A stretch of DNA of 64,000 bases from Rhodospirillales bacterium (GTDB taxonomy: Bacteria; Pseudomonadota; Alphaproteobacteria; Acetobacterales; Acetobacteraceae), in contig CANHKG010000002.1 of the NCBI GenBank assembly GCA_947460455.1, positions 2,004 to 66,003 on the forward strand. The letters are read 5' to 3'. The position numbers were made by a program, and so were the translations under genes. This document shows positions 720-41,666 of this stretch, piece after piece. Under the pieces are notes generated by a model. That model had not been told where the DNA came from, did not search any database, and worked only from the letters and a program-made list of their open reading frames with translations. How positions within the stretch are numbered: position 1 is the stretch's first letter; every line of letters begins with the position of its first letter.

Positions 720-722
720 CCC

Positions 723-21557: not shown

Positions 21558-23057
21558 CTACGCTGCCTGATCGGCCAACACCTGCGCGATGGGGAACGGC
21601 GCATCGAAGCACAGGCCCAGTTCGACCTGGCCATCAGCGGCTGCGACATTGACCACCTTGAACGCGATGGAGCCCGCCGACCAACCGCCGGGCAGTGCGA
21701 ATTGGCCACGCATGCCGTTTCGGACAACGGACCCCTCTGGCACAATGAGCCGCGCGCCGGTCTCGGACAGGTCCTTCGTCATGACATCGCGGATGTCTGA
21801 CGTTTCCAGCGTGATCTGCCAGGGCACCTCCAGGAGTATGCGATCGCTGCGGCGGCGGTTGACCTCGCTCGCCGACGTTCGCACCGCCATCGACACGGAT
21901 TGCCTGAAGCTCAGGATCAATCCATCGGTGACATCGGCCACCTCGTTTGCCGCCATGTGAACATCAGCCGCGCATTCGAAGCTGCTGCCGACATCGCCGG
22001 TCATGGCCAGGATGCGCTCGGAGAGGGCGGCGGCGGCATCAACGGTGCGGCCCACATGGCCCGCGATGTCGGCCGTTGCCTGGCGCTGTTCGGCGACGGC
22101 CTCGGCGATGCCCTGGGCGATCTGGTCGATCGCGACGACGGCATTGGCCATCCGGTCGACCGCCTTCACCACATCCTGGTTGGAGACATCGATGGCGCCG
22201 ATGGTGCCGGCGATCGACTGGGCGGACTGCGTGGTCATCCGCGCCAGTTCCTTGACCTCGTTGGCGACCACGGCGAATCCGCGGCCGGCTTCGCCGGCGC
22301 GGGCCGCCTCGATCATGGCATTGAGGGCGAGCATGTTGGTCTGCCCGGCGATCGTCTGGATCAGGTCGGCCACCGACTGGATTGTGGTGATGTTGCCGGT
22401 CATCGCGGCGATGACCTCCCTGGCATCGGTGGTGGCGCGCATGGCGTTGCCGACCGCGCTCGTTGCCTGCTCCACCTGCGCCGAAATTTCGCGGATCGAT
22501 ATGTTCAGGTGATCGGCCGTTTTGCTGAGCTGGCTGGCACTTTCCACCGAATGGTCGGCCGCCTCGCTGGACATCACCGCATTCTGGCCGGAGCGCTCGG
22601 CCACGGCGGCAATCGAATCCGATATGGCCTTCACCCGCTGCACGCCGTCGCCCAGCTGCTGCACCTTCTCATCGACCTTGTGCTCGATCGCATCGGCCAT
22701 GGCTTGCATCGATCGGATGCGTCGTGCCTCTGCCTCATTATCGAGTTCGGCGAGTTGCGCGCGCAAGGTGTTCGCTTCGATCTCCAGCGCCTGAATTCTG
22801 GCTTCGTGCACGGGCGGGCGGTGCGCGAGGCTTCCGCGGCGGGCGATCAGCAGCAGGGCAAGTGCGCCGAGGCCGGGAAGGGCGGACGCGGCCAGCACCA
22901 TCATCGCGCCATCGCCCCGGCTCGCAACGCCCCAGGACAGCGCGGCGGCCAGGACGCCCGCGCAGAAGGGAGCCGCGGCACCATCGATCAGGCGGGCAGA
23001 AAGCTGCCGTATCCGCTGGGTCCAAACCTGGTTGCCGTTTGACATGCTGGTCACCAT
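21558..23057 (-). CDS. Methyl-accepting chemotaxis protein with C-terminal PilZ domain (no periplasmic sensor or HAMP recognised)
   Basis: MCP hairpin tip ..[38 protein letters not shown].. C-terminal PilZ motifs RRRSDR and DLSETG. N-terminus has two closely spaced TM helices. Alternative starts at 23045 and 23090 (TTG). Confidence 0.85.
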
Positions 23058-23385
23058 TTGCCTCGTCCGCGTCAAATTGAGGAGCTGCAATTACAAAACG
23101 ATGAATTCCCAGAATCGTCGTTTTGGACCGTTGTTACGATTTGTTGTGCGTTGCGAGGCAACGATGGGGGCCCAGTGTTCTCTGCGCGGTATGGCGCGGA
23201 TGTCTGAACATCATGACAGGGAACAGAAATAAGTATAATTACTTAGGTATTTACTGTGTGATTGGCAATTCTGCCGCAAATTTCGCCATTGATTAAGCTC
23301 TTTGTCGAATTCTTCGCCCAGAGCAACGCCTCCCGGTCCCACCGACAGCCCGCCGGACCCGTCTCCGGCCCCGCCCGCCCATCGG

Positions 23386-25224
23386 ATGCGAGGAACCTTC
23401 AAGGTTATGACGATGCGAAACCTGACTGCAGCGCTTCGGAACCAGCCCCCGGCAGAACATGATTATGACTGGGCCCCCATCCAGATGCCGGGCACCATCC
23501 AGCCCTATGGCGCTCTGATCGTGGCGGATCCGCAGACGCGGCGGGTTCAGTTCGTCAGCGACAATGCCGGTGAGATGCTGGGCATCAAGGCGGCCGACCT
23601 GCTGGACAAGAGCTATCTCCAGCTGTGTGGCTCTGACCGGGAGCGGCGCTTCGTCAGCGACGCCATCATGCCGGACACGATCCTGTTCCCCAACCCGGTG
23701 CGGCTTACCATCAACGGCAAGCCTTTCGATGCGGTGTTCCACGCCGAGGGCGGCGCCCATCTGATCCAGCTGGAACCGGCCGATCCGGACGCGCTTTCCT
23801 ATGACGAGATGTCGCTGCGCGCGACCGCCGAGCTGTTCGATCCGCCGACCGTGGAGGAGCTGAACCAGCGCGCCGTGCGGATGATCCGCGAGGTGACGGG
23901 CTTTGACCGCGTGATGCTCTATCGGTTCGACAGCCGCTACAATGGCCAGGTGATCGCCGAAGCCGGACGGCCCGATATCGGGTCTTTTCTTGGGCTGTTC
24001 TTTCCTTCCAGCGACATCGGGGCGCGTGCGCGCAATCTGTATTTGGAGAATTTCACCCGATACATCCCGGATATCGGCGCTGCACCGGTCTCCCTGAGCG
24101 GGATCTATCCCGGTGGCGGCCATGCCGACTCCGCCCACCCCGTGGACATGTCCCACGCCAATCTGCGCAGCGTGGTGCCCTGCCATGTGACCTATCTGCG
24201 TAATATCGGTGTTCAGGCCTCGATGTCGTTCAGCATCAACGTGGACAACCGGCTCTGGGGATTGTTCGCCTGCCACCACTATGAGCCGAAGACGGTCTCC
24301 TTCGAGAAGCGGGTGGTCTGCGAGCAAGCGGCGATGATGTTCATCTTCCGGCTGGCGACCATGACCTCGACCGCCGCCCGCTATGCGCGGCGCCAGGAGG
24401 GCCTGGCCCGCCTGACCACCAGCATTACCGTTGGCGCCGCCTTGCGCCGCCGCCTGGCCGGGCTGGCGCAGGGCTGGGCGGGCGATCCGGCCGCGGACAC
24501 GGCAGAGGCGCTGATCGCCCGGGCCATCGAGGCGGTTGAGGCGGAGACCAGCCTGCTGCTGCCCACCGACCCCTCGCAGCTGCCGGCAAATGCGCCGGTG
24601 ACCGGCAACCAGAAGATCCTGCTGGACCTGGTGGAGGCCGATAGTGCCGCCATCGTGCATCACGGGCGTGTTACCCGCATCGGCGAAGCGCCGTCGGCGA
24701 TGGCGATCTATGCCGTTGCCTCGATGTTCGGGCGCGAGTTGCCGGACCTGCAGAACGCTGCGCCGCATGTCTACGCGACCGACGGGCTGAGCGCCGTTGT
24801 GGCGGCCGCCGACGACATCAAGGATCGCGCGGCCGGGATCATGGCGGCGGCGCTGTCGCTGGAATCGCCAAGCTACATCATCTGGTTCCGGCGCGAGCAG
24901 ATCGTCCATGCGACCTGGGCCGGCAACCCCGCCGCCGATGCCATGTCGGCCGGCAGTGAGGGGCTGAATCCCCGCGCCTCGTTCGAGGCCTGGAAGCAGG
25001 ACATCCGCAACCTTTCCCGCCCGTGGGAGATGGAGGATGTGGTGGTGGCGGACGAACTCGCCGCGGTGCTGCGCAGCGTGGCGGCGCCGGATGGTGCGGC
25101 GCGGCCGGCGAAGCCGGAGCTGCAGCGCCCCATCGTGCCCCCGGCACCGCCGCGGCCCGCCGCCCCGCCGCCGGCGGCGCCGGCGGGCTCCGATCGCAAG
25201 GTCATCCGGATCGGCCATCGCTGA
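23386..25224 (+). CDS. Phytochrome photosensory core (PAS-GAF-PHY) with GAF-domain Cys, no output domain, Pro/Ala-rich tail (Phy1)
   Basis: ..APIQMPGTIQPYGALIV.., ..FPSSDIGARARNLY.., ..LRSVVPCHVTYLRNIGVQASMSFSI..LWGLFACHHY.., PHY tongue ..ATWAGNP.. and ..PRASFEAWK.. The start is uncertain (ATG 23386, 23407 or 23413, or TTG 23302). Confidence 0.85.
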   Translation: MRGTFKVMTMRNLTAALRNQPPAEHDYDWAPIQMPGTIQPYGALIVADPQTRRVQFVSDNAGEMLGIKAADLLDKSYLQLCGSDRERRFVSDAIMPDTILFPNPVRLTINGKPFDAVFHAEGGAHLIQLEPADPDALSYDEMSLRATAELFDPPTVEELNQRAVRMIREVTGFDRVMLYRFDSRYNGQVIAEAGRPDIGSFLGLFFPSSDIGARARNLYLENFTRYIPDIGAAPVSLSGIYPGGGHADSAHPVDMSHANLRSVVPCHVTYLRNIGVQASMSFSINVDNRLWGLFACHHYEPKTVSFEKRVVCEQAAMMFIFRLATMTSTAARYARRQEGLARLTTSITVGAALRRRLAGLAQGWAGDPAADTAEALIARAIEAVEAETSLLLPTDPSQLPANAPVTGNQKILLDLVEADSAAIVHHGRVTRIGEAPSAMAIYAVASMFGRELPDLQNAAPHVYATDGLSAVVAAADDIKDRAAGIMAAALSLESPSYIIWFRREQIVHATWAGNPAADAMSAGSEGLNPRASFEAWKQDIRNLSRPWEMEDVVVADELAAVLRSVAAPDGAARPAKPELQRPIVPPAPPRPAAPPPAAPAGSDRKVIRIGHR

Positions 25225-25290
25225 CGCGGTCCGCGCCTTCTACGTCCACCACCATCGCGATGCCGAACCGCGGCACGACAGGAACCGAGC

Positions 25291-25602
25291 ATGAGCGATT
25301 TTGAAGTCAGCCTCACCGCCACCGATCTCGCGTCGATCCTGGCCACCAAGGGCACCCTGGACAGCAAGGTTGGCCAGGTTTTCAAGAGCAAGAGCGACAA
25401 GGCTCTGGAAATGGAGCCGAAGAACATCAACGTGGACTTCCAGAAGCTGGCGGTTCTGGATGCTTCGGCGGCCGGCATGCTGATGTTCTTCAACTACGCT
25501 GCCAAGACCAAGGGCAAGCAGATCAGCATCACCAATGCCAGCCCGGCGGTCCAGCAGGTGCTCAACCGCGCCAATCTCGGCAAGCTCCTGACGATCCGAT
25601 GA
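25291..25602 (+). CDS. Single-domain STAS protein (anti-sigma-factor-antagonist-like)
   Basis: 103 aa. ..NINVDFQKLAVLDASAAGMLMFFNYAAKTKGKQISITNASPAVQQVLNRANLGKLLTI.. matches the STAS/SpoIIAA C-terminal pattern. AGGAA RBS 6 nt upstream. Confidence 0.7.
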   Translation: MSDFEVSLTATDLASILATKGTLDSKVGQVFKSKSDKALEMEPKNINVDFQKLAVLDASAAGMLMFFNYAAKTKGKQISITNASPAVQQVLNRANLGKLLTIR

Positions 25603-25645
25603 TCCGCCCCGCCGCGCCCATGCCGCGTGCCCCCCTTGTCAGTGG

Positions 25646-26284
25646 ATGGCCCCCCTGATGTCTGAACATCACTCCCGCGTGACCCATTTGCGCACCCATA
25701 CGCGCGCCGCGCACAAGAGCATCGAGACCGTTCCCGCACTGGCCCGGCTGTTGGCGCCGGATCTGGGCCGCGGCGAATACGCCGATGTTCTGCTGGCGAT
25801 GCAGGCCTTCCACGCCGCGGCCGAGCCCGATATCGCCCTGGCGCTGGAGGGGTTGCCGGCTGCCCAATCCCTGCTCGACGGTCGCCGCCTCCGGGCCCTG
25901 TCGGACGACCTTGCCTTTCTCGGCACGGCACCGTGGCCGGCGAGCCCGGCACCCCTCGCCTTGGCGAACCGGGCGGAGGCGATTGGCGCACTCTACGTGA
26001 TCGAGGGGGCCAGCCTCGGCGGGCGGGTGATTGCCCGGCACATTGCCGACAGCCTGGACCTGGCGCCAGGCGCGGGGGCGAGCTTCTACGGTGGATTGTC
26101 GGCCGATGCGGCCCGCGAGCGCTGGGGCCGGCTCAGCGCCGTGCTGGAGGACCCGGCGATCGAGATCGATCTGCACGACCTCGCCCACGGCGCCTGCAAG
26201 ACCTTTGAAAGCCTGGAGCGGTGGATGCGGCGCGTGGCCGTCGCCGAAGCGCCGCACACCCTGGCCGTTTCAGCGGCCGCTTGA
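25646..26284 (+). CDS. Heme oxygenase (biliverdin-producing, BphO/HmuO-like)
   Basis: ..LRTHTRAAHKSIE.. (proximal His region), ..DDLAFLG.., ..GALYVIEGASLGGRVIAR.. ATG 25658 is an alternative start. Confidence 0.8.
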   Translation: MAPLMSEHHSRVTHLRTHTRAAHKSIETVPALARLLAPDLGRGEYADVLLAMQAFHAAAEPDIALALEGLPAAQSLLDGRRLRALSDDLAFLGTAPWPASPAPLALANRAEAIGALYVIEGASLGGRVIARHIADSLDLAPGAGASFYGGLSADAARERWGRLSAVLEDPAIEIDLHDLAHGACKTFESLERWMRRVAVAEAPHTLAVSAAA

Positions 26285-26316
26285 ACCGCTGGACACGTCA
26301 GCGAAAGGACCTGGAC

Positions 26317-27840
26317 ATGCTCGATAAGATGGTCGCTGGCCTGGAAAATCCCTACGCGAACCTGCGCGCGCCGGGCCAGGTCCAAAGCTTCGGTGCCATG
26401 CTGGCACTGCATCCGACGACGCTGCGCGTGCTCAACGCCAGCCAGAATGTCGCGGCGGAACTTGGTGTTGGCCATGCGGACATTCTCGGCAAGCCGTTGT
26501 TCGACCTGCTGGAAGGCGGCGAGGCGATCGCCGAGATCAAGGACGCGCTGCAGCAGGACCAGCCGGTGTTCAACAACCCGATCCTGGCCTCGATCGGTGG
26601 GCAGCGCTTCGATCTGTCGCTGCATTGCCATGACGGGCTGGTGATTGCGGAGTTCGAACGCCTGGCCCCCGGCGCGGCCACGCGGGCCGACATGGACCGG
26701 CTGAGCGACGACGCCATCATGGGGATGATGGTTCCCGGCACCGAGGAGGAGCTGCTCGCCGCCGGCCCCGAGGCCATTCGCAGGGCGACCGGCTTCGATC
26801 GGGTGCTGCTCTATCGCTTCGACGAGGCGTTCCGCGGCCAGGTGGTGGGCGAGGCGCGCCGCACGGGCGTGGAGAGCTTCATGGGGCTGTTCTTTCCCGA
26901 AAGCGACATCGGCGCCCCCGCCCGTGATCTCTACACGCAGAACTTCTCCCGCTACATTCCGCATATCGGCGCGCCCACGGCCAAGATCGAACCGGCCGAC
27001 AACCCGCTGACCAACAAGCCCATCGATCTCTCGCATTCCGTGCTGCGGGCGGTGGCGCCCTGCCACGTCGCCTATCTCGCGAACATGGGCGTGACCGCTT
27101 CGATGTCGTTCTCGATCGTGTCGGAAGGCCGGCTGTGGGGGTTGTTCGCCTGCCATCACTACAGCCCGAGCAATCTCTCCTTCACGCAACGGATGATCTG
27201 CGAGCAGATCGCGATGATGTTCGTGGCCAAGCTGCAGGAAGTGGTCAATCCGCTGGCGCTGGAGGAGGAGATGGAGCAGCGGCGCACGAAGCTGCTTGCC
27301 TCCTCGCCGCTGTTCCGGGGCAATCCGCTGAAGCAGAGCTGGAGCGAGGAGAACGAGCAGGACCTCGTCAGGCTCGTCAATGCCGGTGGCGTTGCCCTCT
27401 ACATCGATGGCCAGGTCGGTGAGATCGGCACCTGCCCGGACCTGAGCGACCTGCACGACTTCATCGAGCATTCGCCGCGGGACTTCGATGCGCTGCTGCG
27501 CCGCTACGACGAGCAGGGGCTGTTCTACACGAGCAGCATCGCCTCCGTCCTGCCGTTCGGCGCGAAGATGCGCGAGCAGGGCAGCGGCGTGATGATCGTT
27601 CCGCTGTCTGCCGAACGGCGCGAGTTCCTGTTGTGGTTCCGCCCCGAACTCGTGGTGACTGCCACCTGGGCCGGCAATCCGTCTGAGACCAAGATCAAGG
27701 ACCTGAACGCCACGTTCAGCCCGCGCCGGTCGTTCGCCGCCTGGAAGGAAGACATCCGCGATCTCTCCGCCCCCTGGACCGCGGCCGAGATCGCCAATGC
27801 CAAGGCCGTTCGCGACCACGTGATGGCCCTGATCAACTGA
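26317..27840 (+). CDS. Phytochrome photosensory core (PAS-GAF-PHY) with GAF-domain Cys, no output domain (Phy2)
   Basis: ..APGQVQSFGAMLAL.., ..FPESDIGAPARDLY.., ..LRAVAPCHVAYLANMGVTASMSFSI..LWGLFACHHY.., ..ATWAGNP.., ..PRRSFAAWK.. Ends 25 aa after the last PHY motif. Confidence 0.85.
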   Translation: MLDKMVAGLENPYANLRAPGQVQSFGAMLALHPTTLRVLNASQNVAAELGVGHADILGKPLFDLLEGGEAIAEIKDALQQDQPVFNNPILASIGGQRFDLSLHCHDGLVIAEFERLAPGAATRADMDRLSDDAIMGMMVPGTEEELLAAGPEAIRRATGFDRVLLYRFDEAFRGQVVGEARRTGVESFMGLFFPESDIGAPARDLYTQNFSRYIPHIGAPTAKIEPADNPLTNKPIDLSHSVLRAVAPCHVAYLANMGVTASMSFSIVSEGRLWGLFACHHYSPSNLSFTQRMICEQIAMMFVAKLQEVVNPLALEEEMEQRRTKLLASSPLFRGNPLKQSWSEENEQDLVRLVNAGGVALYIDGQVGEIGTCPDLSDLHDFIEHSPRDFDALLRRYDEQGLFYTSSIASVLPFGAKMREQGSGVMIVPLSAERREFLLWFRPELVVTATWAGNPSETKIKDLNATFSPRRSFAAWKEDIRDLSAPWTAAEIANAKAVRDHVMALIN

Positions 27841-29583: not shown

Positions 29584-30225
29584 TCAGCGGTCCTCGTCGG
29601 CTCCGGCTGCCAGCCTGCGCTTCGCGCTGCCGATCCACGCCTCCACGTCCACCAGGCGGCTGATGTCGCCGAGTGCGGCGCGCAGCTCGCCGAGATCTGA
29701 ATGTGCGAGTTGGCGTGTGGTCCTGACACCGATCTGGCTCATTCGGATCAGCATGCCGGGACCGAAGCCGATTTCAGCGAGCGGGGGATCGAATTCGGGG
29801 CTGTCAGGCATGGCCGGGGTTGCAGGTGCATCTGCTTCGGCGGTGGGTTCATCCTGGCTGGCTGCGACGGGCGCAGCGCCGGGATCGTCCTCTGCTGGCG
29901 GGCCTGCCGGCACCGGCGCTTCATCGATGGCAGCGGCTGCTTCGGGCGCCGTTTCCTCCGCCATGATGTGGGAATAGCTGGCAAAAACCGAACCGGACTG
30001 GAGCGGCTGTGCGGCGGCGGGATGGCGTTCTTCGGGCGGCAATGCCGGTTCGGGGGCGGCCGCCGGCGGCTCCGGCTTGGCGGCACCTTCCCGTTCGAGG
30101 CGGCGCGCCTCGTGCGACTCTCGCAGGCTGCTGCGCAAGATCGGCCGCTGGCGGAGACGCTCCTGGCGATAGGCTGCGATCATCATCATGCCTTTGGAGG
30201 CCGGCGGATCTGACCGAGAGCTCAT
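29584..30225 (-). CDS. Hypothetical protein with acidic/Pro-rich centre and C-terminal helix-hairpin-helix-like domain
   Basis: 213 aa. The C-terminus ..LAEIGFGPGMLIRMSQIGVRTTRQLAHSDLGELRAALGDISRLVDVEAWIGSAK.. resembles the HhH/DUF4332-like module common in alphaproteobacteria. Lies downstream of gvpA. Confidence 0.55.
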   Translation of the reverse strand: MSSRSDPPASKGMMMIAAYRQERLRQRPILRSSLRESHEARRLEREGAAKPEPPAAAPEPALPPEERHPAAAQPLQSGSVFASYSHIMAEETAPEAAAAIDEAPVPAGPPAEDDPGAAPVAASQDEPTAEADAPATPAMPDSPEFDPPLAEIGFGPGMLIRMSQIGVRTTRQLAHSDLGELRAALGDISRLVDVEAWIGSAKRRLAAGADEDR

Positions 30226-30285
30226 GTTCTATCCTGTGGGATGTGCGCGCGCCGCGGCATTGGGGGGGCGACCCTCAAGGGGAGG

Positions 30286-30335
30286 GGATCATGCGCTGCC
30301 CGGCACCGCGAGCAGTGCTGGGCGACGCATGATCC
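30286..30335 (-). terminator. Strong compound stem-loop 8 nt downstream of the gvpA stop
   Basis: Outer stem ggatcatgcg/cgcatgatcc (10 bp) encloses inner stem gcccggcac/gtgctgggc (9 bp with one G-U) and an 8-nt loop. Confidence 0.55.
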
Positions 30336-30342
30336 ACGCAAC

Positions 30343-30561
30343 CTAGGCTGCTGCCGCCACCGGATCGGTCGTGAGGCCGACGGCTTCGGCATAGCGCAGA
30401 TAGGTCTCCACCGATGCCACGACGACGCGGATCTCGATGGCAATCAGCTCGATGCCGACCAGCGCGATGCGGATGAACGCATCAACCACCACACCCTTAT
30501 CCAGGATGCGATCGATGACTTCGGCCAGGCTGCTCGAAGCAAGGCTTTTATTGATCGTCAT
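30343..30561 (-). CDS. gvpA: Gas vesicle major structural protein GvpA
   Basis: [63 protein letters not shown] is a near-canonical GvpA sequence. Start ATG 30561 lies 7 nt after GAAGGGA (an ATG at 30567 is too close to the RBS). Confidence 0.92.
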
Positions 30562-30703
30562 AGCCATTCCCTTCAATAAAATCGTCAACCCTCGAACGGG
30601 CAAACTGTGCAATTCGAGCGCCACTGGCCGAACTTCACCCCATCAACATAGGAATTTTGGATAAACTGACTATGACCGCTTATTATTATTTATATTCAGA
30701 CTT

Positions 30704-30724
30704 TGGAATATGTTATTCTGGAAT
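30704..30724. promoter_or_regulatory. Direct repeat TGGAAT-N9-TGGAAT in the AT-rich gvpA upstream region
   Basis: tggaatatgttattctggaat sits within the visibly AT-rich 30640-30725 tract, about 145-160 nt upstream of the gvpA start. Confidence 0.3.
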
Positions 30725-30789
30725 GCGCAGTTTGCGCAGCCTAGGCGGGTTCAGCAGAACAGCCGCACCGGCTTGGCCATGTGCGGCAG

Positions 30790-31356
30790 CTACGCCAGCC
30801 TGGGGTGTGGTGGGTTGGCGCGATGCACGGCTGCGCGGGCGCTGGCCAGGGCGATCTGGTACAGCAAGGCACCGGCCAGGGCGCGATACCTGGCTTCGAC
30901 AGTGCCGGAGAACATGGCGAGGATGTGGCTGTACCTGGAGTGCGCAAGCCAATCGAAACCCGATGGCTGCTCCGCAAACGCGGCACTCAACACGCTCGGG
31001 CAGATATCCGCGGTTGGGTCGTGGCCTTCGATGGCACCGAGTGCGTCATCCAGGGCTTCGAATGCAAGGGCGTGGCATCGAACGCGGCGTGCCAGCCCGG
31101 CGCGGTCCTTCGACCACGCGACGATCTCCACGACAAACAGGCCCTCGACGGTCTGGTACAGGCCGAGCTCGTGCCAGAAGCAGGCCGGCGCCACAACGAT
31201 GGATGGCGCTCCGAGCTGGGCCTGCAGCAGCCAGCCGACGAAACGCAGCGGTGATTCACCATGCCGCCGCAACCGGAAAGGCCGCCGCAGGTCTGCATGC
31301 GCGCCTGGCAGGTGCGGCTGCAGATGTGTGGGCGCATCTTGGAGGGCGCCCGTCAT
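30790..31356 (-). CDS. Unknown-family protein, paralog B
   Basis: ..PFRLRRHGESPLRFVGWLLQA..CFWHELGLYQTVEGLFVVEIV..FEALDDALGAIEGH..ARYRALAGALL.. The start overlaps the paralog C stop (ATGA at 31353-31356). Confidence 0.65.
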   Translation of the reverse strand: MTGALQDAPTHLQPHLPGAHADLRRPFRLRRHGESPLRFVGWLLQAQLGAPSIVVAPACFWHELGLYQTVEGLFVVEIVAWSKDRAGLARRVRCHALAFEALDDALGAIEGHDPTADICPSVLSAAFAEQPSGFDWLAHSRYSHILAMFSGTVEARYRALAGALLYQIALASARAAVHRANPPHPRLA

Positions 31357-31859
31357 CGCGGTTCGTTGCCAAAGAGGGCACGCACCATGCCGAACCAGGC
31401 GCCGCGGAACAGTCCGGCCAGCGCGATATCTTCGCCGGCCTGGCGGCAGCTTTCGCCTGGCACGACAAGATCCGCGCAGGGGAGGACCAAGGCGATCATC
31501 GGGTCGTGGGCCTGGATCGCCCGCGGGAGTGCAGGCGCGTTCGCGTGCAGCGCGGAGTCTCGCCAGACGCCACCGAGGCTCTCCGTCAGGTGATGCGTCA
31601 GCGTGGAGGCGAGGCCACTGGTGCGGGTTTCGAACAGCGTGAGCTCGGACCATGCGGGCAGGCCGACGCAGCGATTGCTGACATGCAGCAGGGCGCGCCC
31701 GCAGATGTGGAGCGGCCGCAGCCCGTGGCGCGGCAGGATGACCGGGTGGAAGTGGTGGTCCGCGCTCTCGATGGCCGGTGAGGCCCGATCGGGAGCGGCC
31801 GGCTCATGCGCGCAGAACGGATTGGCCGCAATCGGTGCCATCGCGCTGCGCCGGGTCAT
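31353..31859 (-). CDS. Unknown-family protein, paralog C (most divergent)
   Basis: ..PVILPRHGLRPLHICGRALLH..PAWSELTLFETRTSGLASTLT.. ATG 31859 overlaps the paralog D stop by 1 nt (TGATG). Confidence 0.6.
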   Translation of the reverse strand: MTRRSAMAPIAANPFCAHEPAAPDRASPAIESADHHFHPVILPRHGLRPLHICGRALLHVSNRCVGLPAWSELTLFETRTSGLASTLTHHLTESLGGVWRDSALHANAPALPRAIQAHDPMIALVLPCADLVVPGESCRQAGEDIALAGLFRGAWFGMVRALFGNEPR

Positions 31860-32335
31860 CAGCCAATGTCGAACTGGAACAGCAGTTCGCCGATCATCGA
31901 TCGGTACTGCATCTCGACCCAATCGGCACGCTGGCGCAGTGATGCCGCGCGCAGCGCGATCTCGGTGGCGCTGATGCGCCGGTCTGACGCGTCGAGGTCG
32001 GCAAAGAGATCGGCTGCCGGATCGAAGGCCTGCAGCCAGGCCAGGGCCTTCTCCAGCGAGTCGAACCGATGGGCGTGGAAGACGTCGCTTTCGCACTGGT
32101 TGTCCCGGCAGGTTCGCAGGGCCACGGCAACCTGCCCGTCGTCGCACCGGAAGATCTGCAGGTCCTGCCAGGCCGGTGCGGCCGGCGTTCGGCTCGTGCA
32201 TTCGGCCAGCAATTCCCCACGGACGCGCAGCGGCTTTCCGCCGGACTGGCGCAGCAGGTACCCGCCCTCGCTGATGGCGGGGGCGGTCGATGGCGACGAC
32301 GGGATGCCGGTTTCAAGGCTGAGCATCGCGGACAT
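31859..32335 (-). CDS. Unknown-family protein, paralog D
   Basis: ..GYLLRQSGGKPLRVRGELLAE..PAWQDLQIFRCDDGQVAVALR..FDSLEKALAWLQAF..QYRSMIGELL.. ATG 32335 follows CTGGAG. Confidence 0.65.
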   Translation of the reverse strand: MSAMLSLETGIPSSPSTAPAISEGGYLLRQSGGKPLRVRGELLAECTSRTPAAPAWQDLQIFRCDDGQVAVALRTCRDNQCESDVFHAHRFDSLEKALAWLQAFDPAADLFADLDASDRRISATEIALRAASLRQRADWVEMQYRSMIGELLFQFDIG

Positions 32336-32406: not shown

Positions 32407-34956
32407 CTACGCGGCCTGGCTGCGACCGGGCGGGCAATTCCCCGCATCGCTGGCGATCGCCACCGCGGTTGCGACGGATTGCAGCTGGCGGATGACCCTG
32501 TCGACGGCGCTCAGAATCTCCGGCGCGCGGCCGGTGATCCAATCCTCGCCCAGGCCGGTCCGGCCGGAGACGGCAGCCTCGGCAAGGGCCGCGCTGGAAT
32601 GCATGAGGACGGCCGCCTCCACCCCAACACCGGCGAGCTTCGCGACCGGATCGGTTGTGGGCACGGGGCGTGCCGGCGCATGGGCGGCCTCGGCGCAGGC
32701 CTTCGCACTCTCCATCATCTGATCGGCGACGAGCTGCACCTTGTCGATCGTGCCGGTGAGGATTGTGCCCGACTGTTCGACGGCGGAACAGGTCTGCGCG
32801 ACGCGGCCGAGGCCGTGCGAAAGCTCGCCTGTTGTGGCGGCCATGTCGCTTTGCAGCCGCGCAAGGACGGTGACCTGTTCGGCGAGGTTTTCGCGCCATT
32901 CAGTCGCAGCATCCACTTCGGCATCCGTAAGCTGCTCGGCGGAGGCGTGGAGCGCCGCCAGGCTGCCTTCGATCCGCGCGCAGGTGCCGGCCAACTCATG
33001 CAGCAGTGCTTCCGTGAGTGCCGGCGCGGCCGGCGCCTGGATGTCGTGCACGAGGCTTTCGAAGCGGTGCAGCATCGGCGGGACGCTGCCGATCATGCCG
33101 GCAATCTCCCGCAGCCTTTCGTTCGCCTCGGCGCGGAATTCGCCGGCGAGAGTGTCCAGGCGTTGGCCTGTGGACAGCCCGGCTTCGGAGAACAGGCTGA
33201 CGCGCTGTTGCACAGTGGCCAGCACCCGGTCGATCTCCTGCGCCCGGGCGCTCAGCACTTCCGCATCGCCGCGCAGGCTCGCGCCGGCCTCGGCCAGCGT
33301 TCCCGACACGAAACCAGCGTGATCGCGCAGGCTTGTCACGGCCTCCGCGCCAACCTGTGCGAGCTGGTCGCCGGCATCCTGCAGGGTCGCCTGCATATCG
33401 TCGGTGCGATGGCGCAGCGCGTCCAGCAGCGCGCCCAGCGACGCGTTGCCGGTGGTGTAGGCGGTGTCGATCGTGCCGCCCAGATGGGCGATGGAGGCCG
33501 CAAGCTCGCCGCCCGCACCGGACATCTCGGCGACTTTCTGGTCGATGCGATCTACCTCGCCACGAATTCGGCCGGCGGACGCGGAGGCGCTGGCGATCAT
33601 CTGTGCCGTTGCGGCACAGAGCTGCTGCGCTTCGTCATTCAAGGCCCGCACGCCGGCGTCGGCGGCGGTGTTCAGGGTGGGGATGGCGGCGAGCAAGGCC
33701 TCCGTTGCGTGCACGATGTCGCTGCCCACCGCCTCGCCGGCGGCAAGGCAGGCGCCGGCGGCCTCTCGCGCACGGCCGCTTTCCGCCTCTACCGCGCGGG
33801 CCGCGGCTTCGATCTGCTCGACGCCGGCGAACAACGCCTGGCTTGCGGCCGTGCCCGCATGCGTGGCCGTGGCGATCTCTGCGGCGGCCGCCTCCAGCGC
33901 CTGCGCGCCGGTGCCGAGCTCGACGACAAGCGCCGGAAGGGCCTCGGCATGGGCCAGCAATCCGGCGGAGGCGGATGCCATCATTTCGGCATGATCGCGC
34001 CCGGCCTGGGTGAGGTCGTTCACCCGCATCTGGAGATCTGTGCTGCCGTTGATGACCGCGTCGCGCATTTCGGCGTGCACCTGCGTGCTCTGCTGCAGGG
34101 CCAGGGCAGCGTCGTCGAGGGTCTGCAGGGCGCGGTCGGCCTGGGTTGTGATGGCGGCAGCAAGTTCCGGCAGGGTGGCCACGCCGGTCTCCACGCGACC
34201 CACAGCCTCGTGGGCGCGGGCAACCACGCCGGCACCCGCCGCGGCGATCTCTCGGCAGGCCTGATCCAGGGAGGCCGCGTCCCGTTCCATGCGGCCCGAG
34301 GCGTCGCCCATGGCGGCGATCCGCACAACGATGCCGGAGGTCGCGCGCTCCAGCGCGTGGGCCGCCGCGTCGGCTGCCGCCGTCAAGGTTTGCAATGGCA
34401 GGGACATCGCGGCGCCGGCCTCTTGCGGATAGGACGGCTCGATGCCGCGGGCTGCGAGGTCGCTTGCGATCCGCTCCAACCGATCTGCGATCGTGACGGC
34501 GCCTTCGAGTGTGGTCACCGTGTCGCGCAGGCACAGTTCCGCGTGTTCGGTGCTCTCGGACAGGCGTTTCTCCGCATCCATCGCGAAGCCTGCCAGGTTG
34601 GCGCCCACCACCATGGACTCCCGCGCCGCGGCATTGCCGGCGTCGCGCAGGTCGCTCCATTGCCGGCGCTCATCGTGCATCAGGGCACGCATATCCTCGA
34701 TCGCCGCGCGCAAGTCGGCGTGTTCGGGCGTGTGTGCGTGCGCGGCGTTGGATCCCGCACGTGCGGCTGTCGCCTGCGATCGCAGCACGATCACGGCGGC
34801 GGCGCAGCCGAGCGCGGCCGAGAGGAACGGCAGCAGCGTCCAGCCATGGGTGCCGATATCAGCCAGCAGCTGCGGCCCCCGCGCGGCGATGCCGGCCAGA
34901 CCGGCCAGGACTGCGAGGGCGAGGCACAGCCAGCCAAGCTTGTTCTGCCATTCCAT
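32407..34956 (-). CDS. Large (849 aa) Ala-rich, predicted all-helical protein with two N-terminal TM segments; unknown function
   Basis: N-terminus LGWLCLALAVLAGLAGIA / WTLLPFLSAALGCAAAVIVL, then about 750 aa of A/E/L/Q/T-rich helix-type sequence. Starts 12 nt after the gvpK stop. No MCP tip motif and no 33-aa GvpC repeat. Confidence 0.75.
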   Translation of the reverse strand: MEWQNKLGWLCLALAVLAGLAGIAARGPQLLADIGTHGWTLLPFLSAALGCAAAVIVLRSQATAARAGSNAAHAHTPEHADLRAAIEDMRALMHDERRQWSDLRDAGNAAARESMVVGANLAGFAMDAEKRLSESTEHAELCLRDTVTTLEGAVTIADRLERIASDLAARGIEPSYPQEAGAAMSLPLQTLTAAADAAAHALERATSGIVVRIAAMGDASGRMERDAASLDQACREIAAAGAGVVARAHEAVGRVETGVATLPELAAAITTQADRALQTLDDAALALQQSTQVHAEMRDAVINGSTDLQMRVNDLTQAGRDHAEMMASASAGLLAHAEALPALVVELGTGAQALEAAAAEIATATHAGTAASQALFAGVEQIEAAARAVEAESGRAREAAGACLAAGEAVGSDIVHATEALLAAIPTLNTAADAGVRALNDEAQQLCAATAQMIASASASAGRIRGEVDRIDQKVAEMSGAGGELAASIAHLGGTIDTAYTTGNASLGALLDALRHRTDDMQATLQDAGDQLAQVGAEAVTSLRDHAGFVSGTLAEAGASLRGDAEVLSARAQEIDRVLATVQQRVSLFSEAGLSTGQRLDTLAGEFRAEANERLREIAGMIGSVPPMLHRFESLVHDIQAPAAPALTEALLHELAGTCARIEGSLAALHASAEQLTDAEVDAATEWRENLAEQVTVLARLQSDMAATTGELSHGLGRVAQTCSAVEQSGTILTGTIDKVQLVADQMMESAKACAEAAHAPARPVPTTDPVAKLAGVGVEAAVLMHSSAALAEAAVSGRTGLGEDWITGRAPEILSAVDRVIRQLQSVATAVAIASDAGNCPPGRSQAA

Positions 34957-34968
34957 CGTGCCGCTCCG

Positions 34969-35277
34969 CTACATCAGCCGGCCCAAGGGTCCGAGATCCA
35001 GATTGAGGCTGTCTGGTGGGACGCCGAGCTTTTCGCACAGCGACACCACCGCATCGCGCGATCGCAGCAGGGTCAGGCCCAGCCGCTCGGCCTCCTCCGG
35101 CGTGATCGTCTCGGCCTCCATCCGGCGGACGGCCTGTGCCTCCATGAGGCGGCGGAGGAACTCGACCAGGGTCAGCACGAGCCGGGCCAGATCCTGCTCG
35201 ACCCGGTCGGGATCGATGCTGATGCGGCCCAGCACCGGGGGGGACGACGACGACGCATCAAGGTCCAGGACGCTCAT
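34969..35277 (-). CDS. gvpK: Gas vesicle protein GvpK
   Basis: ..RISIDPDRVEQDLARLVLTLVEFLRRLMEAQAVRRME..ITPEEAERLGLTLL..LNLDLGPLG.. is the GvpK signature. ATGA overlap with the upstream gene. Confidence 0.88.
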   Translation of the reverse strand: MSVLDLDASSSSPPVLGRISIDPDRVEQDLARLVLTLVEFLRRLMEAQAVRRMEAETITPEEAERLGLTLLRSRDAVVSLCEKLGVPPDSLNLDLGPLGRLM

Positions 35278-35489
35278 GCCTGCGGCCCTGCGCTGGGCAG
35301 CAGCGTCATGCGCGAGGCGGTGTCGACCGAGGCGAGCAACGCGCGCACGCCGAGATAGACCAGGTCCACGCCGGCGACGGTCAGCACGATCTGCCCATCG
35401 GCGACGACGCCGGTATCCAACAGGCGGTCCAGCACATCGACCAGCGTGGCCGGTTGGGCGCCGTCGGTGAGGGGGATGCGGTCAGACAT
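35274..35489 (-). CDS. gvpS: GvpA/J/M/S-family small gas vesicle protein (GvpS-like)
   Basis: 71 aa. ..ATLVDVLDRLLDTGVVADGQIVLTVAGVDLVYLGVRALLASVDTA.. is the GvpA-fold core. Confidence 0.8.
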   Translation of the reverse strand: MSDRIPLTDGAQPATLVDVLDRLLDTGVVADGQIVLTVAGVDLVYLGVRALLASVDTASRMTLLPSAGPQA

Positions 35490-36288
35490 GGGCGGCCTCC
35501 GCCTGCAGCGCCGCCCGGGCGAAGGCATAGGCGGGCCAGGGGCCGGTCAGCCGCACGGCAAGCCCGGACGGTGCCAGTTCCTCGGTGAGGGCGGCGAGCC
35601 ATGCCTGGACGAGGGGCGAGGCGCCGGCATCGGTGGGGGCGAGCACGCTCCAGCAGGGCGATCCATCCCGCTGGCGCTCGACCAGCACCGGCCAGCCAGC
35701 CGCCTGCAGCAGCGCGGTGATGCGCGCCTCCACGCTCGCCAGATGCTCGACGCGCGCGGCGACTTGCGCCTTGTCGATCCGTTTCGCCATCAGGAAGGCG
35801 GTGCCGGCGCCGGCATTCTCGGCCTGGCGGGTGAGGCGTTGCAGTTCGGCGTCGTGATGGGCAAGCCAGGCGGCGTGGCGGGCCGGGTCGGCGCAGATGG
35901 AGAGGCACCACTCCGCATGACCTGCCATGCGTGCGATCCCGTCGCGCATGGCGGCGGCGCGCGGTCGCAGCCACCCTGACAGCCGGTCGAGGCTCGAAAA
36001 CAGGGTTCCGAAACCGAGTGGCAGGCAGGCCTGCCGCGACGCGGCCGCGGCGACCACGGCGTGATGCGCGGCGGCGCGTTCCGCCATCCAGTCGGGATCG
36101 TCGGTGCGGTTGCCGTCCTGCCCGTCCTCGAACAGCGCGCGGGGCACCAGGGTGGCCAGGACATCGACCGTCCCGAAGGAAATCGCGTCCACCGTGGTGC
36201 CCGGAAGCAGGCCTGGAACATCCGGCGCCGGCTGGCCCGGGGCGATGACGGCATAGACATACCAGGCGCGGTCGGTGTGCGCGGTCAT
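35482..36288 (-). CDS. gvpL: GvpL/GvpF-family gas vesicle assembly protein
   Basis: ..AWYVYAVI.. start, ..HHAVVAAAASRQACLPLGFGTLF.., ..LTGPWPAYAF.. ATGA overlap with the upstream gene. Confidence 0.85.
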   Translation of the reverse strand: MTAHTDRAWYVYAVIAPGQPAPDVPGLLPGTTVDAISFGTVDVLATLVPRALFEDGQDGNRTDDPDWMAERAAAHHAVVAAAASRQACLPLGFGTLFSSLDRLSGWLRPRAAAMRDGIARMAGHAEWCLSICADPARHAAWLAHHDAELQRLTRQAENAGAGTAFLMAKRIDKAQVAARVEHLASVEARITALLQAAGWPVLVERQRDGSPCWSVLAPTDAGASPLVQAWLAALTEELAPSGLAVRLTGPWPAYAFARAALQAEAAHV

Positions 36289-37316
36289 GCCGCATGCTCC
36301 ACAACCTGCCCCGCCACCGGCGCCAACTCGGGCAGAACAAGGCGGTAGCCGGCCTGCCGCACCAGGCTGCGCAAGGTCCTCGGCGCGGCCCGCAGCAGCG
36401 GGCGGAGCAGGCGATAGGCCTCGGTGATCTCGGTGAAGGCCTCGGTGGACGCCGGCTGGCCGGGGCGACGGTCTGGATGGGCGGACGCGGCGAGGGCCCG
36501 CCACTGGCGATGCAGCAGGGTGATATCCACCTTCTCCGGCAGGCCGAGCACGCGCCAGCTTCGGGCGATGTCCCCAGCCTCAACGCGGGTGAGCCGGACC
36601 GGGTGAAAGCTGACCGGCGGCATCGGCCCGCGCAGATCGGCACTGGCCCCCGCCACCTGGGCCGGCGGCAACTGGCCGAGCGCGGCCTCGATCAGGTTCT
36701 CCCGGCCGCGGGGGACCAGAACGGTGGTGGTGATCTCGGTCTCCCCGCCCGCAGTGGACCCTGGCGCGATGGCCAGGACATGGCGGCTGAGCGCCTGCAG
36801 CACGACGGCCGAGCGGGCGGCGTGCTCGGCGCGCAGCAGCGCCTGGACGGCCTGCGCCAACAGGGCCGGATCACCCTTCGCGGCGGCTTCCTGCAGGGTC
36901 TCGCGCTGCGTCGCCAGCACCGCCTCGGGCGGCCAGCTGATCACCAGATCCCATTGATGCACGGCCCCGAGCTGGGCGAGCCTGGCGCCCAGATCCTCCC
37001 AGGACAGCTCCAGCAGCGCGTCGATCGCGCTGGTTGGGCAGCAGGCAGCGCCTGGGTCCATCGGCAGGAACGGTCCGAACTGGCAGGCAATCTCCAGCCG
37101 GCGGTGCACCGCCTGCAGCCCGCTGAGCAGGGCCTTGCGGCCGCGGCGGGCAAGGGGCGTCGTCGGCTCATCCTGGATCAGGGCAGCGACCGTCGGGCCG
37201 TACACCGCGCGCAGCGACGGACCCGGCACGGCGGACATCGCCGCGCACAGGCCTTCGATATCCGCGAGGCCGGCAAAGCCCAACAGCCGCGTCGGTGCCA
37301 TGTTCACATCCGCCAT
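36285..37316 (-). CDS. GvpL/GvpF-like protein fused to a C-terminal J-domain
   Basis: The N-terminal 270 aa are GvpF/L-like (..HRRLEIACQFGPFLPM.., ..LRGPMPPVSF). The C-terminus ..WRVLGLPEKVDITLLHRQWRALAASAHPDRRPGQPASTEAFTEITEAYRLL.. matches a J-domain including HPD. AGGAGG RBS. Confidence 0.8.
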   Translation of the reverse strand: MADVNMAPTRLLGFAGLADIEGLCAAMSAVPGPSLRAVYGPTVAALIQDEPTTPLARRGRKALLSGLQAVHRRLEIACQFGPFLPMDPGAACCPTSAIDALLELSWEDLGARLAQLGAVHQWDLVISWPPEAVLATQRETLQEAAAKGDPALLAQAVQALLRAEHAARSAVVLQALSRHVLAIAPGSTAGGETEITTTVLVPRGRENLIEAALGQLPPAQVAGASADLRGPMPPVSFHPVRLTRVEAGDIARSWRVLGLPEKVDITLLHRQWRALAASAHPDRRPGQPASTEAFTEITEAYRLLRPLLRAAPRTLRSLVRQAGYRLVLPELAPVAGQVVEHAA

Positions 37317-39400: not shown

Positions 39401-39665
39401 CCGCCGGCTCCTCGGCTGCCGTGCCGGCCTGGATGGCGCGCATTTCCATGAGCTCCTCCAGCAAGCGGGATTCCTCGGCCTCGAACGCCTCCTCGGTGAT
39501 CTCACCGTTGTCGAGCTGGCGTTCCAGCAGCCGCAGCGCCTGCTCGATGCGGGCGGGATCCAGCATCTTCTGCAGTGCCTGCTCGGCCACCTGGCGGGCG
39601 ATCCATTGCAGCGCGCCCAGCGGGCCGGCCACGGGCAAGGCGATGAGGGAGCCGAGGATGCTCAT
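39390..39665 (-). CDS. gvpG: Gas vesicle protein GvpG
   Basis: 91 aa. ..PVAGPLGALQWIARQVAEQA.. then ..LERQLDNGEITEEAFEAEESRLLEEL.. is typical GvpG. ATGA overlap with gvpF. Confidence 0.85.
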   Translation of the reverse strand: MSILGSLIALPVAGPLGALQWIARQVAEQALQKMLDPARIEQALRLLERQLDNGEITEEAFEAEESRLLEELMEMRAIQAGTAAEEPADAA

Positions 39666-41028: not shown

Positions 41029-41037
41029 GCCGACCTC

Positions 41038-41340
41038 CTATTGCCGCGCCGTGGCGGCGATGGTGTGCTCGAGCTTGGCGATCCGTTCGAGCAGGGCGGC
41101 ATTGTCGGCCTGCAGCTTGGCGGAGCCGGCGCCGTTCAAGGCGGCATCGTTCTCCCACCAGCGGATGCCCATTTCGAGGGCGCGATCGACCGAGGCCACC
41201 ACCAGGCGGATGCGCACGGTGAGCAGTTCGACGCCCACCAGGCTCACCGAAATGTCGCCCGCGACGACGATCCCCTTGTCGAGGATGCGCTCCAGGATAT
41301 CCGCCAGGCCGGAGCCGCCGACGCTGTGTTGCAAGGCCAT
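41038..41340 (-). CDS. gvpJ: Gas vesicle protein GvpJ (GvpA family)
   Basis: ..GLADILERILDKGIVVAGDISVSLVGVELLTVRIRLVVASVDRALEMG.. plus a C-terminal extension. Confidence 0.88.
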   Translation of the reverse strand: MALQHSVGGSGLADILERILDKGIVVAGDISVSLVGVELLTVRIRLVVASVDRALEMGIRWWENDAALNGAGSAKLQADNAALLERIAKLEHTIAATARQ

Positions 41341-41393
41341 AATGGGTCCCCTTTTGGGAATGGCGCGTGGATGAGGCGCGGTGGTGCCGCGCG

Positions 41394-41648: not shown

Positions 41649-41666
41649 CGTCTGTCTCCCTGTTGA

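Follow-up and report, generated by a model that had tools for sequence, protein, structure and literature searches.

A 64-kb window of contig CANHKG010000002.1 from a Rhodospirillales bacterium (family Acetobacteraceae, assembly GCA_947460455.1; the window is the whole stretch of 64,000 nucleotides that was analysed, with a G+C content of ~68%) encodes two phytochromes, Phy1 and Phy2, that consist of a photosensory core without an enzymatic output domain. They lie in a seven-gene operon with the order Phy1-STAS-HO-Phy2-X-Y-PcyA (intergenic gaps of 7-66 nt), where HO is a heme oxygenase, PcyA is a bilin reductase and X and Y are uncharacterised small proteins. A complete gas-vesicle (gvp) cluster on the minus strand (29584-43841) converges on this operon. 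We consider it reasonably probable that the locus forms a red-light sensing module that is self-contained, works without a kinase and is attached to the gvp cluster, and that it represents a two-phytochrome variant of the island that carries the phytochrome BrBphP3 in Bradyrhizobium ORS278. Judged from their sequences, Phy1 and Phy2 are very probably photoreceptors of the phycocyanobilin (PCB) type that have no enzymatic output. That they control gas vesicles, as the gene linkage suggests, has about an even chance of being correct. An initial annotation of the window had described the two phytochromes; the gvp cluster, the BrBphP3 precedent, the C-terminal peptide of Phy1 and the separate Phy2-X-Y module were not part of it.

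Phy1 and Phy2 are PAS-GAF-PHY proteins without an output domain

The window was scanned for open reading frames (ORFs) and Pfam domains, with a reporting threshold of E<=0.01 for the domains of Phy1 and Phy2. The two genes are long plus-strand ORFs with alternative starts (23302/23386-25224 for Phy1 and 26221/26317-27840 for Phy2). Since the consensus of the Phy1 family begins at Met10 of the window protein, the true start of Phy1 is probably at 23413, which would give a protein of 603 aa. PAS_2, GAF and PHY were found in this order in both proteins, well above the curated cut-offs, and Pfam reported no further domain in either of them. All of the hallmark motifs quoted in the initial annotation are present: IQMPGTIQPYG, SDIG (aa 209-212), PCH, LWGLFACHHY, WAGNP and PRASF in Phy1, and APGQVQSFG, SDIG (aa 196-199), PCH, LWGLFACHHY, WAGNP and PRRSF in Phy2. 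The NCBIfam equivalog model for bacteriophytochromes (BphPs) scored 292 bits against a cut-off of 1040. The AlphaFold2 (AF2) model of Phy1 has the fold of a photosensory core (pLDDT 79.7, pTM 0.72) with a helical insertion at residues 306-388. This insertion lies in the helix that links GAF and PHY, which is 84-93 aa long with the insertion compared to 38-39 aa without it (~45 aa extra).

Both reading frames end shortly after the PHY domain. Phy2 terminates ~10 aa past PHY and its stop codon is followed, after 60 nt, by X; Phy1 has a tail of ~46 residues and its stop codon is followed, after 66 nt, by STAS. No match to HisKA, HATPase, a kinase, GGDEF, EAL or REC was detected in any neighbouring ORF. 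The possibility that a kinase or another output domain is concealed by a frameshift from sequencing or assembly, which the initial annotation had itself raised, is effectively refuted, because the same lengths and gene order recur in many independent clusters (~78 for Phy1 and ~87 for Phy2) and in at least nine assemblies, and because the DNA downstream of the two genes encodes the conserved STAS and X proteins.

The tail of Phy1 had been described as a Pro/Ala-rich extension of ~45 aa. Its presence and composition are as described, but it is not featureless, as it ends in a conserved motif. Among Phy1-type proteins the tails are variable in sequence, Pro/Ala-rich and ~30-80 residues long, and ~74 of 79 carry the consensus RRVIR(I/V)GQ(R/L) at the extreme C-terminus, including those encoded at loci L003, L004, L006, L034 and L035 (L-numbers denote related loci, and P-numbers protein matches). 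Within the loci examined this motif was confined to the Phy1 C-terminus. Residues 575-612 of the Phy1 tail are disordered in the AF2 model (pLDDT <50). A flexible linker that ends in a conserved peptide looks like a tethering or docking peptide, comparable, by analogy only, to the C-terminal pentapeptide of chemoreceptors or to cargo-targeting peptides. Two other explanations of the tail were considered and rejected. Folding of the tail back onto the core was not adopted, as the AF2 monomer leaves 575-612 disordered and gives no evidence for docking. The idea that RRVIR acts as an RxxxR motif complementing a neighbouring chemoreceptor with a PilZ domain was dropped because RRxxxR and DxSxxG are already present in that PilZ domain itself.

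A GAF-domain cysteine and a DIG motif mark both families

Phy1 and Phy2 were aligned by MAFFT with Cph1 (the reference being 100% identical to PDB 2VEA, residues 1-514), BrBphP3 and canonical BphPs. Cys266 of Phy1 and Cys249 of Phy2 fall in the column of Cys259, the chromophore cysteine of Cph1, in agreement with the alignment made by eye in the initial annotation. The nearly invariant Asp-Ile-Pro (DIP) motif reads Asp-Ile-Gly (DIG) in both proteins, with Gly in the Pro209 column, again as first noted. No cysteine is present N-terminal to the PAS motif of Phy1 or Phy2, and this also holds when the ORFs are extended to upstream TTG or GTG starts.

Protein searches identified ~78 full-length relatives of Phy1 (~600 aa, 54-95% identity, ~78 clusters at 90% identity) and ~87 relatives of Phy2 (~507 aa, 55-96% identity, ~87 clusters at 90% identity). 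Nearly all of them come from metagenomes and metagenome-assembled genomes (MAGs), and none has an output domain. Conservation was quantified over 79 Phy1-type, 88 Phy2-type and 21 canonical BphP sequences. Cysteine occupies the Cph1 259 position in 78/79 Phy1-type and 88/88 Phy2-type sequences compared to 0/21 canonical BphPs, and the N-terminal cysteine shows the opposite pattern (1/79, 1/88 and 21/21, respectively). At position 209, Gly was found in 55/79 Phy1-type and 73/88 Phy2-type sequences and in none of the 21 canonical BphPs, all of which have Pro. Pro is kept in only 5/79 Phy1-type and 11/88 Phy2-type sequences, and has thus been lost from 74/79 and 77/88. His260 is retained in every member of both families (79/79 and 88/88), and Y176, D207, R222, R254, H260, Y263, H290, W(A/G)G and PRxSF are invariant or near-invariant. 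In a HMMER search that was exhaustive over 1.84 billion 50%-identity representatives, each family collapsed to one full-length representative. Pro209 was kept in 140 of the 144 next representatives, and three of the four exceptions were fragments of the Phy1 and Phy2 families. Because Pro209 is kept so widely, DIG is, on the sequences compared, a real signature of the Phy1 and Phy2 lineages.

The only Phy1-type protein that lacks the GAF cysteine is P0039, from a metagenome, which has Pro in its place and carries an N-terminal cysteine (AEHACDWDPIH). This looks like a natural reversion to an attachment site of the biliverdin type. That the protein without the GAF cysteine has gained an N-terminal one argues that covalent bilin attachment is under selection. 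The alternative is that Phy1 and Phy2 are no PCB photoreceptors at all, and instead bind biliverdin non-covalently, act as bilin carriers or sensors without photochemistry, or represent genes in decay. It is favoured by the loss of the near-invariant Pro of DIP, and PCB binding in these families is itself deduced from sequence. Nevertheless, all other pocket and tongue residues are strongly conserved in ~170 sequences, the invariant cysteine is accompanied by a dedicated PcyA in the operon with an intact catalytic triad, the switch of cysteine position in P0039 speaks for covalent attachment, and BrBphP3 is reported to bind PCB (PMC3899966, PMC11480375). We therefore regard this alternative as highly improbable.

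A further output-less phytochrome was noted in a MAG of Candidatus Kapaibacterium (Bacteroidota; P0096, 617 aa). It has an N-terminal cysteine and no GAF cysteine, TDIT replaces DIP, the GAF-PHY helix carries a long insertion, and the protein falls loosely with the Phy2 clade in the neighbour-joining (NJ) tree described below.

Phy1 is related to BrBphP3 and Phy2 forms a separate clade

A NJ tree was built from 452 alignment columns with 100 bootstraps and serves as a rough test of relationship only. Phy1-type proteins grouped with BrBphP3 and its ortholog from the Acetobacteraceae isolate Falsiroseomonas selenitidurans in 95/100 bootstraps, and Phy2-type proteins formed a clade of their own in 100/100. 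The two families were sisters in 0/100, which contradicts the view of Phy1 and Phy2 as recent tandem duplicates. The tested groupings of either family with Cph1/FiDCB, where FiDCB is a cyanobacterial dual-Cys bacteriophytochrome (DCB), were likewise recovered in 0/100. The label 'cyanobacterial-type' that had been given to the GAF cysteine is thus correct for its position and not for its lineage, because neither family groups with Cph1 or FiDCB.

BrBphP3 of ORS278 resembles Phy1 in several respects. It is an alpha-proteobacterial PAS-GAF-PHY protein with a GAF cysteine at the Cph1 259 position, the same insertion in the GAF-PHY linking helix and a short C-terminus that contains no known domain. 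Its gene is followed by a gene for a 103-aa STAS protein, then HO and a PcyA of the AX clade, and is linked to a gvp cluster, as in the window. BrBphP3 is 33% identical to Phy1 over 565 residues and 26% identical to Phy2, which, in contrast to BrBphP3, belongs to a separate clade and has no GAF-PHY helix insertion. Other features set BrBphP3 apart from the window proteins. BrBphP3 and the Falsiroseomonas ortholog have Asp at the His260 position (CDNGY) and keep DIP or DVP, whereas Phy1 and Phy2 have His260 and DIG; BrBphP3 additionally carries an N-terminal cysteine, which Phy1 and Phy2 lack; and the tails of BrBphP3 and the Falsiroseomonas ortholog end in …PRLAGSL… and …RTAGSL…, respectively, unlike the RRVIR(I/V)GQ(R/L) of Phy1-type proteins. 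Jaubert et al. in 2007 reportedly described an orange/red photocycle for BrBphP3, at ~610/670 nm. We infer that the replacement of His260 goes with the orange-absorbing dark state of BrBphP3. The retained His260 and the DIG motif, set against BrBphP3, would then suggest that the photocycle of Phy1 and Phy2 is likely closer to the red/far-red cycle of Cph1 than to the orange/red cycle of BrBphP3. BrBphP3 (BRADO1262) is described as a PCB-binding phytochrome with atypical spectra, encoded on an acquired island together with PCB-synthesis and gvp genes (PMC3899966; PMC11480375).

Cph1 of Synechocystis sp. PCC 6803 shares with Phy1 and Phy2 the column of the GAF cysteine, the lack of an N-terminal cysteine, a PcyA as the source of PCB (predicted for the window proteins), and H260, Y176, Y263, R254, H290 and PRxSF. 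Phy1 and Phy2 are 30-32% identical to Cph1 and differ from it in having no histidine kinase, DIG rather than DIP, and SVxPCH around the cysteine, as in bacteriophytochromes, where Cph1 has AYHCH. Canonical BphPs (RpBphP2/3, PDB 4R70/4R6L, and the HWE/HisKA proteins P0100-P0120) have a similar core, with best PDB E-values of 1e-72 to 1e-80, and share the BphP-like pocket. Unlike Phy1 and Phy2, they combine the N-terminal cysteine and DIP (both 21/21) with Ile or Val at position 259 and with a kinase or a different output domain. The solved structure that best matched Phy2 was that of FiDCB (PDB 9JRY, E=7e-80; PMC11880981), which has the same SPCH around the GAF cysteine. In contrast to Phy1 and Phy2, DCBs are cyanobacterial, retain the N-terminal cysteine, keep DIP and stand apart in the NJ tree.

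The operon encodes a predicted phycocyanobilin supply and putative small partner proteins

Because the operon contains HO and a PcyA with conserved catalytic residues, it is predicted to encode a supply of PCB. Alignment of the window PcyA to the Synechocystis enzyme (2D1E) showed that Glu76, His88 and Asp105 are kept as E57, H69 and D86, and the protein is 48% identical to the PcyA of ORS278. Of these residues, Glu76 was singled out by Rockwell et al. (PMC10151467) as specific to PCB-forming PcyA, and the ORS278 enzyme is described as active in the literature. The initial proposal that the neighbouring HO and ferredoxin-dependent bilin reductase (FDBR) could provide a phytobilin is supported by the retained triad and the similarity to ORS278 PcyA. 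X and Y were also considered as bilin-binding globins of the pre-PcyA/BBAG type (PMC10151467); this was ruled out, as the FDBR is a true PcyA of the AX type and no globin match was found. A promoter and terminator scan of 22900-30700 gave a count of terminator-like elements within the shuffled background and two promoter-like matches that were uninformative.

The single-domain STAS protein is the most conserved small gene product of the cluster, with 77-83% identity across loci. It is most similar to antagonists of the SpoIIAA type. In an alignment its Ser59, in a D(A/S)S motif that is conserved in the Acetobacteraceae loci, matches Ser58, the residue that is phosphorylated in SpoIIAA. Light states read by protein-protein interaction are established for RpBphP1-PpsR2 and for the LOV-STAS protein YtvA. 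RpBphP1 binds biliverdin and has a C-terminal module of PAS/PAC plus a two-helix output sensor (HOS), and the STAS domain of YtvA is its output element, fused to the sensor, which acts in the stressosome and feeds light into sigma-B control. Unlike YtvA, the window has STAS as a separate protein and no stressosome genes nearby. Three phytochromes among our matches (P0101, P0104 and P0111) are fused to a PP2C/SpoIIE phosphatase (PF07228), which would act on partner-switching proteins of the STAS type. The presence of these fusions indicates that a phytochrome-to-STAS signalling logic exists elsewhere.

These observations raise the alternative that STAS is an anti-sigma-factor antagonist in a partner-switching cascade, in which light-activated Phy1 controls the availability or phosphorylation of STAS and thereby an alternative sigma factor and a general response at the level of transcription, with gas vesicles as one member of the regulon or unrelated to it. 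The similarity to SpoIIAA, the aligned serine with its conserved D(A/S)S motif, the PP2C fusions and the established light input of YtvA to sigma-B are all consistent with such a cascade. However, genes for an RsbW/SpoIIAB-type kinase, a PP2C phosphatase or a sigma factor are missing from the operon and its immediate surroundings, both in the window and in L034-L036, and the Ser59 position is Ala in the ORS278 and Falsiroseomonas orthologs, so that phosphorylation is not a shared mechanism. We consider this alternative unlikely.

A further question is whether Phy1 and Phy2 act on each other. The initial annotation had suggested a heterodimer or a two-colour comparator, and Phy1 and Phy2 do occur together in all nine Phy1-type loci that are long enough, no photochemical residue is missing from either, and they differ structurally, as only Phy1 has the helical insertion and the tail. 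The comparator, however, has no sequence support: the bilin-pocket residues of the two families are near-identical and offer no basis for different colours. In addition, Phy1 and Phy2 are not sister paralogs, loci of the BrBphP3 type function without Phy2, and the separate small genes beside each of the two phytochromes suggest modules that work in parallel. An obligate heterodimer or comparator is therefore doubtful, and two modules, Phy1 with STAS and Phy2 with X and Y, remain our preferred arrangement.

The operon is linked to gas-vesicle genes in related loci

The order Phy1-STAS-HO-Phy2-X-Y(-PcyA) is identical in L001-L006 and L034-L036. The gvp genes adjoin the operon not only in the window but also in L003, L004, L034, L035, L036 and L030, and this adjacency holds for every Phy1-type locus with enough flank. 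Relative to the operon they are collinear in L034 and divergent in L035 and L036; in L003 and L004 they lie upstream. A gene whose product is 100% identical to the window Phy1 lies on an 8.4-kb contig in an Acetobacteraceae MAG that bears the label 'Asaia bogorensis'. Further carriers were MAGs assigned to Acetobacteraceae, Rhodopila and Rhodospirillales, sampled in lakes, ponds and peat.

On the ORS278 chromosome, genes for a 620-aa phytochrome, the 103-aa STAS protein, HO, PcyA and an aminotransferase are followed by gvp genes; this is the published BrBphP3 island (Jaubert et al. 2007, J Biol Chem 282:7320, as cited in PMC3899966 and PMC11480375). Its 10-kb flanks contain no Phy2, X, Y or Y-like paralogs, and the locus carries alaS (also PMC11480375). 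In Falsiroseomonas the BrBphP3 ortholog is 54% identical and the locus reads Phy-STAS-MCP-HO-PcyA, again with a STAS protein of 103 aa, where MCP stands for methyl-accepting chemotaxis protein; no gvp genes were found within 10 kb downstream in this locus (L033). Phy2, X and Y are absent from both loci, and in the Acetobacteraceae operon they seem to form a second module that was inserted between HO and PcyA.

The gvp cluster of the window comprises a distal operon next to PcyA and a main cluster (Table 1). The distal operon is transcribed in the order Y-like, u149, Y-like, GvpA and a 213-aa protein. The two minus-strand Y paralogs share their DNA with long, spurious ORFs in different reading frames. 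The 213-aa protein has a long disordered N-terminal part, and its C-terminus resembles, by eye, a helix-hairpin-helix (LAEIGFGPGMLIRMSQIGVRTTRQLA). The main cluster begins, in transcription order, with u238, GvpN, u150, GvpO, GvpA/J, an HSP20/GvpH-like protein, GvpF/L and GvpG, and continues with a CDC48-type AAA+ protein, GvpL/F-DnaJ, GvpF/L, GvpJ/S, GvpK and an 849-aa protein of no known family. The first gene, u238 (43122-43841, minus strand, 239 aa), has no Pfam hit and lies beside gvpN also in L035 and L036. Its N-terminus (IELTLPSDLRDLVGLPCRILLRDGSRPDIVLQP) resembles by eye a DNA-binding domain of the AbrB/SpoVT type, and u238 could be the missing transcriptional regulator. The 849-aa protein (32407-34956, minus strand), which belongs to no Pfam family, is matched in L034-L036 by equally placed proteins of 745-1076 aa that resemble it only weakly (25% over 441 aa). 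A GvpL/F paralog (36285-37439, minus strand) has a C-terminal match to the DnaJ J-domain, and the same combination occurs in the ORS278 cluster.

Divergent from Phy1 lies a gene for a membrane-anchored chemoreceptor with a PilZ domain (MCP-PilZ). This protein may be part of the system. In L036 an MCP-PilZ gene directly follows PcyA, and in ORS278 a PAS-MCP gene lies upstream of BrBphP3. In F. selenitidurans, a soluble 305-aa protein consisting of the MCP signalling domain alone (L033, 2901-3818) is encoded between STAS and HO of the BrBphP3-type operon. These genes are the basis for a further alternative, in which Phy1-STAS, and perhaps Phy2, modulate MCP-PilZ or soluble MCPs to produce phototaxis or photokinesis, instead of or besides buoyancy. 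In addition to the cases above, MCP-PilZ is divergent from Phy1 in L001 and L002 as it is in the window, and L035 has an MCP gene at its edge. However, no MCP gene was found in the available flanks of L003-L006 and L034, the cluster contains no CheA or CheW genes, and MCP genes are so numerous in alpha-proteobacteria that some adjacency by chance is expected. Motility as the output is in our view improbable.

The rest of the window, including its first 16 kb, is ordinary and unrelated (Mrp antiporter, amidase, Tct transporter, oxidoreductases). GC skew is strongly positive (+0.15 to +0.24) and AT skew is negative over 1-16000, and skew is near zero from ~22 to 44 kb, a range that includes the phytochrome-gvp region.

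Table 1. Positions of the phytochrome operon, its predicted functional sites and the neighbouring genes in the window
Feature	Position	Strand	Description	Basis
MCP-PilZ chemoreceptor, membrane-anchored	21558..23090	-	Divergent from Phy1; PilZ with RRRSDR and DLSETG (intact RRxxxR and DxSxxG c-di-GMP motifs)	
Phy1	23386..25224	+	PAS_2-GAF-PHY, BrBphP3 clade, without output domain; 612 aa from 23386	Pfam, Cph1 alignment, family statistics, NJ tree, AF2
Phy1 Asp-Ile-Gly (aa 210-212)	24013..24021	+	Replaces DIP; Gly in Cph1 Pro209 column	MAFFT
Phy1 Cys266	24181..24183	+	Predicted phycocyanobilin thioether site; Cph1 Cys259 column	MAFFT; Cys in 78/79 family members
Phy1 C-terminal peptide RKVIRIGHR	25195..25221	+	Predicted docking motif, after variable Pro/Ala-rich disordered linker	
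STAS, single-domain, 103 aa	25291..25602	+	Partner gene of Phy1-/BrBphP3-type phytochromes	Pfam STAS and STAS_2
Heme oxygenase, 212 aa	25646..26284	+	Makes biliverdin from heme; cluster position conserved	Pfam PF01126
Phy2	26317..27840	+	Bare PAS_2-GAF-PHY core, 507 aa; clade separate from Phy1	Pfam, alignment, family statistics, NJ tree
Phy2 Asp-Ile-Gly (aa 197-199)	26905..26913	+	Replaces DIP; Gly in Cph1 Pro209 column	MAFFT
Phy2 Cys249	27061..27063	+	Cph1 Cys259 column	MAFFT; Cys in 88/88 family members
X, 110 aa	27901..28233	+	Conserved amphipathic helix EIALLRxRIQHLELVxETARSL...RLLRRLHEIPRE; always directly after Phy2	Synteny, alignment
Y, 179 aa	28275..28814	+	Uncharacterised family; always after X; two paralogs just upstream of gvpA	
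PcyA, 229 aa	28822..29511	+	Alpha-proteobacterial AX type	Pfam PF05996
Distal gvp operon	29584..32290	-	Five genes as below	tblastn synteny
213-aa protein	29584-30225	-	After gvpA; adjoins the phytochrome operon in L003-L005, L034 and L035	
GvpA, 72 aa	30343-30561	-	91% identical to GvpA of L034 and L035	Pfam PF00741
Y-like paralog	30850-31305	-	Distal gvp operon	
u149	31368-31751	-	Distal gvp operon	
Y-like paralog	31862-32290	-	Distal gvp operon	
Main gvp cluster	32407..43841	-	Some start coordinates approximate	Pfam and tblastn against annotated loci

Proposed mechanism

In the arrangement that we favour, HO and a true PcyA would convert heme to PCB, as their homology and conserved catalytic residues suggest. 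Cys266 of Phy1 and Cys249 of Phy2 would attach this PCB, and the conserved pocket and tongue motifs point to photoconversion. Because neither protein has an enzymatic output domain, the light state would be read by partner proteins. The initial annotation had already reached the view that signalling runs through protein contacts, and this follows from the missing output domain together with the tightly conserved small partner genes. A first module would consist of Phy1 and the 103-aa STAS protein, a pairing common to BrBphP3, with the tail peptide of Phy1 also involved. A second module, specific to this Acetobacteraceae lineage, would consist of Phy2, X and Y. The invariant linkage and the paralogs of Y in the gvpA operon suggest that the target is most likely gas-vesicle formation or assembly, and thus how the cells float in the water column. 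Taxis through MCPs may be a second output.

Several points weigh against this proposal. For both families the chromophore identity, the photocycle and the partners are all deduced from sequence, and gene linkage is no proof of regulation. The operon has no recognisable DNA-binding regulator, anti-sigma kinase or PP2C phosphatase. X has no significant match among Pfam, NCBIfam or PDB sequences and Y has no match in these three collections; the AF2 model of Y, made with three window paralogs, has a pLDDT of 52 and gave no Foldseek hit against the PDB at E<=0.001. The change from DIP to DIG may alter the photochemistry. For ORS278, no light-dependent gas-vesicle phenotype is said to have been shown by Jaubert et al. 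in 2007.

A more far-reaching reading would take the two families as two independent alpha-proteobacterial lineages with a GAF cysteine and an early-branching AX-type PcyA, neither of them derived from Cph1, so that phytobilin attachment arose, or first existed, in proteobacteria together with PcyA. In this reading Phy1, through STAS and its tether, and Phy2, through X and Y, would control gas-vesicle assembly directly at the protein level, because the paralogs of Y are encoded next to gvpA. We regard it as a long shot. If true, it would mean light-switchable buoyancy without a kinase or a transcription factor.

Significance

An output-less proteobacterial PCB phytochrome linked to HO, PcyA and gvp genes is already known (BrBphP3, 2007), and in 2024 ORS278 was still regarded as the sole alpha-proteobacterium with such an island (PMC11480375). 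No description of the Acetobacteraceae phytochrome families was found in the searchable literature. As far as that literature shows, what is new comprises the two large families from Acetobacteraceae, a second phytochrome together with the X-Y module, the DIG motif, the retained His260, the C-terminal peptide and the breadth of the distribution. The supercluster of HO, PcyA, phytochrome and gvp genes is widespread in Acetobacteraceae of lakes, ponds and peat, with ~80-90 protein clusters at 90% identity, and this distribution suggests from which lineage the ORS278 island probably came.

The two uncharacterised proteobacterial families, which probably bind phycocyanobilin, bear on the proposed origin of PcyA in proteobacteria (PMC10151467) and on the shift of the chromophore cysteine from the N-terminus to the GAF domain (PMC11880981). 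With DIP changed naturally to DIG while the rest of the pocket stays intact, the two families offer a ready-made experiment on a motif that is treated as invariant. Phy2 (507 aa) and Phy1 (603 aa) are compact sensors without an output domain that seem to have small partners of their own and, in Phy1, a conserved tether peptide. They are candidate parts for red/far-red optogenetic dimerisers, and they make kinase-free phytochrome signalling testable.

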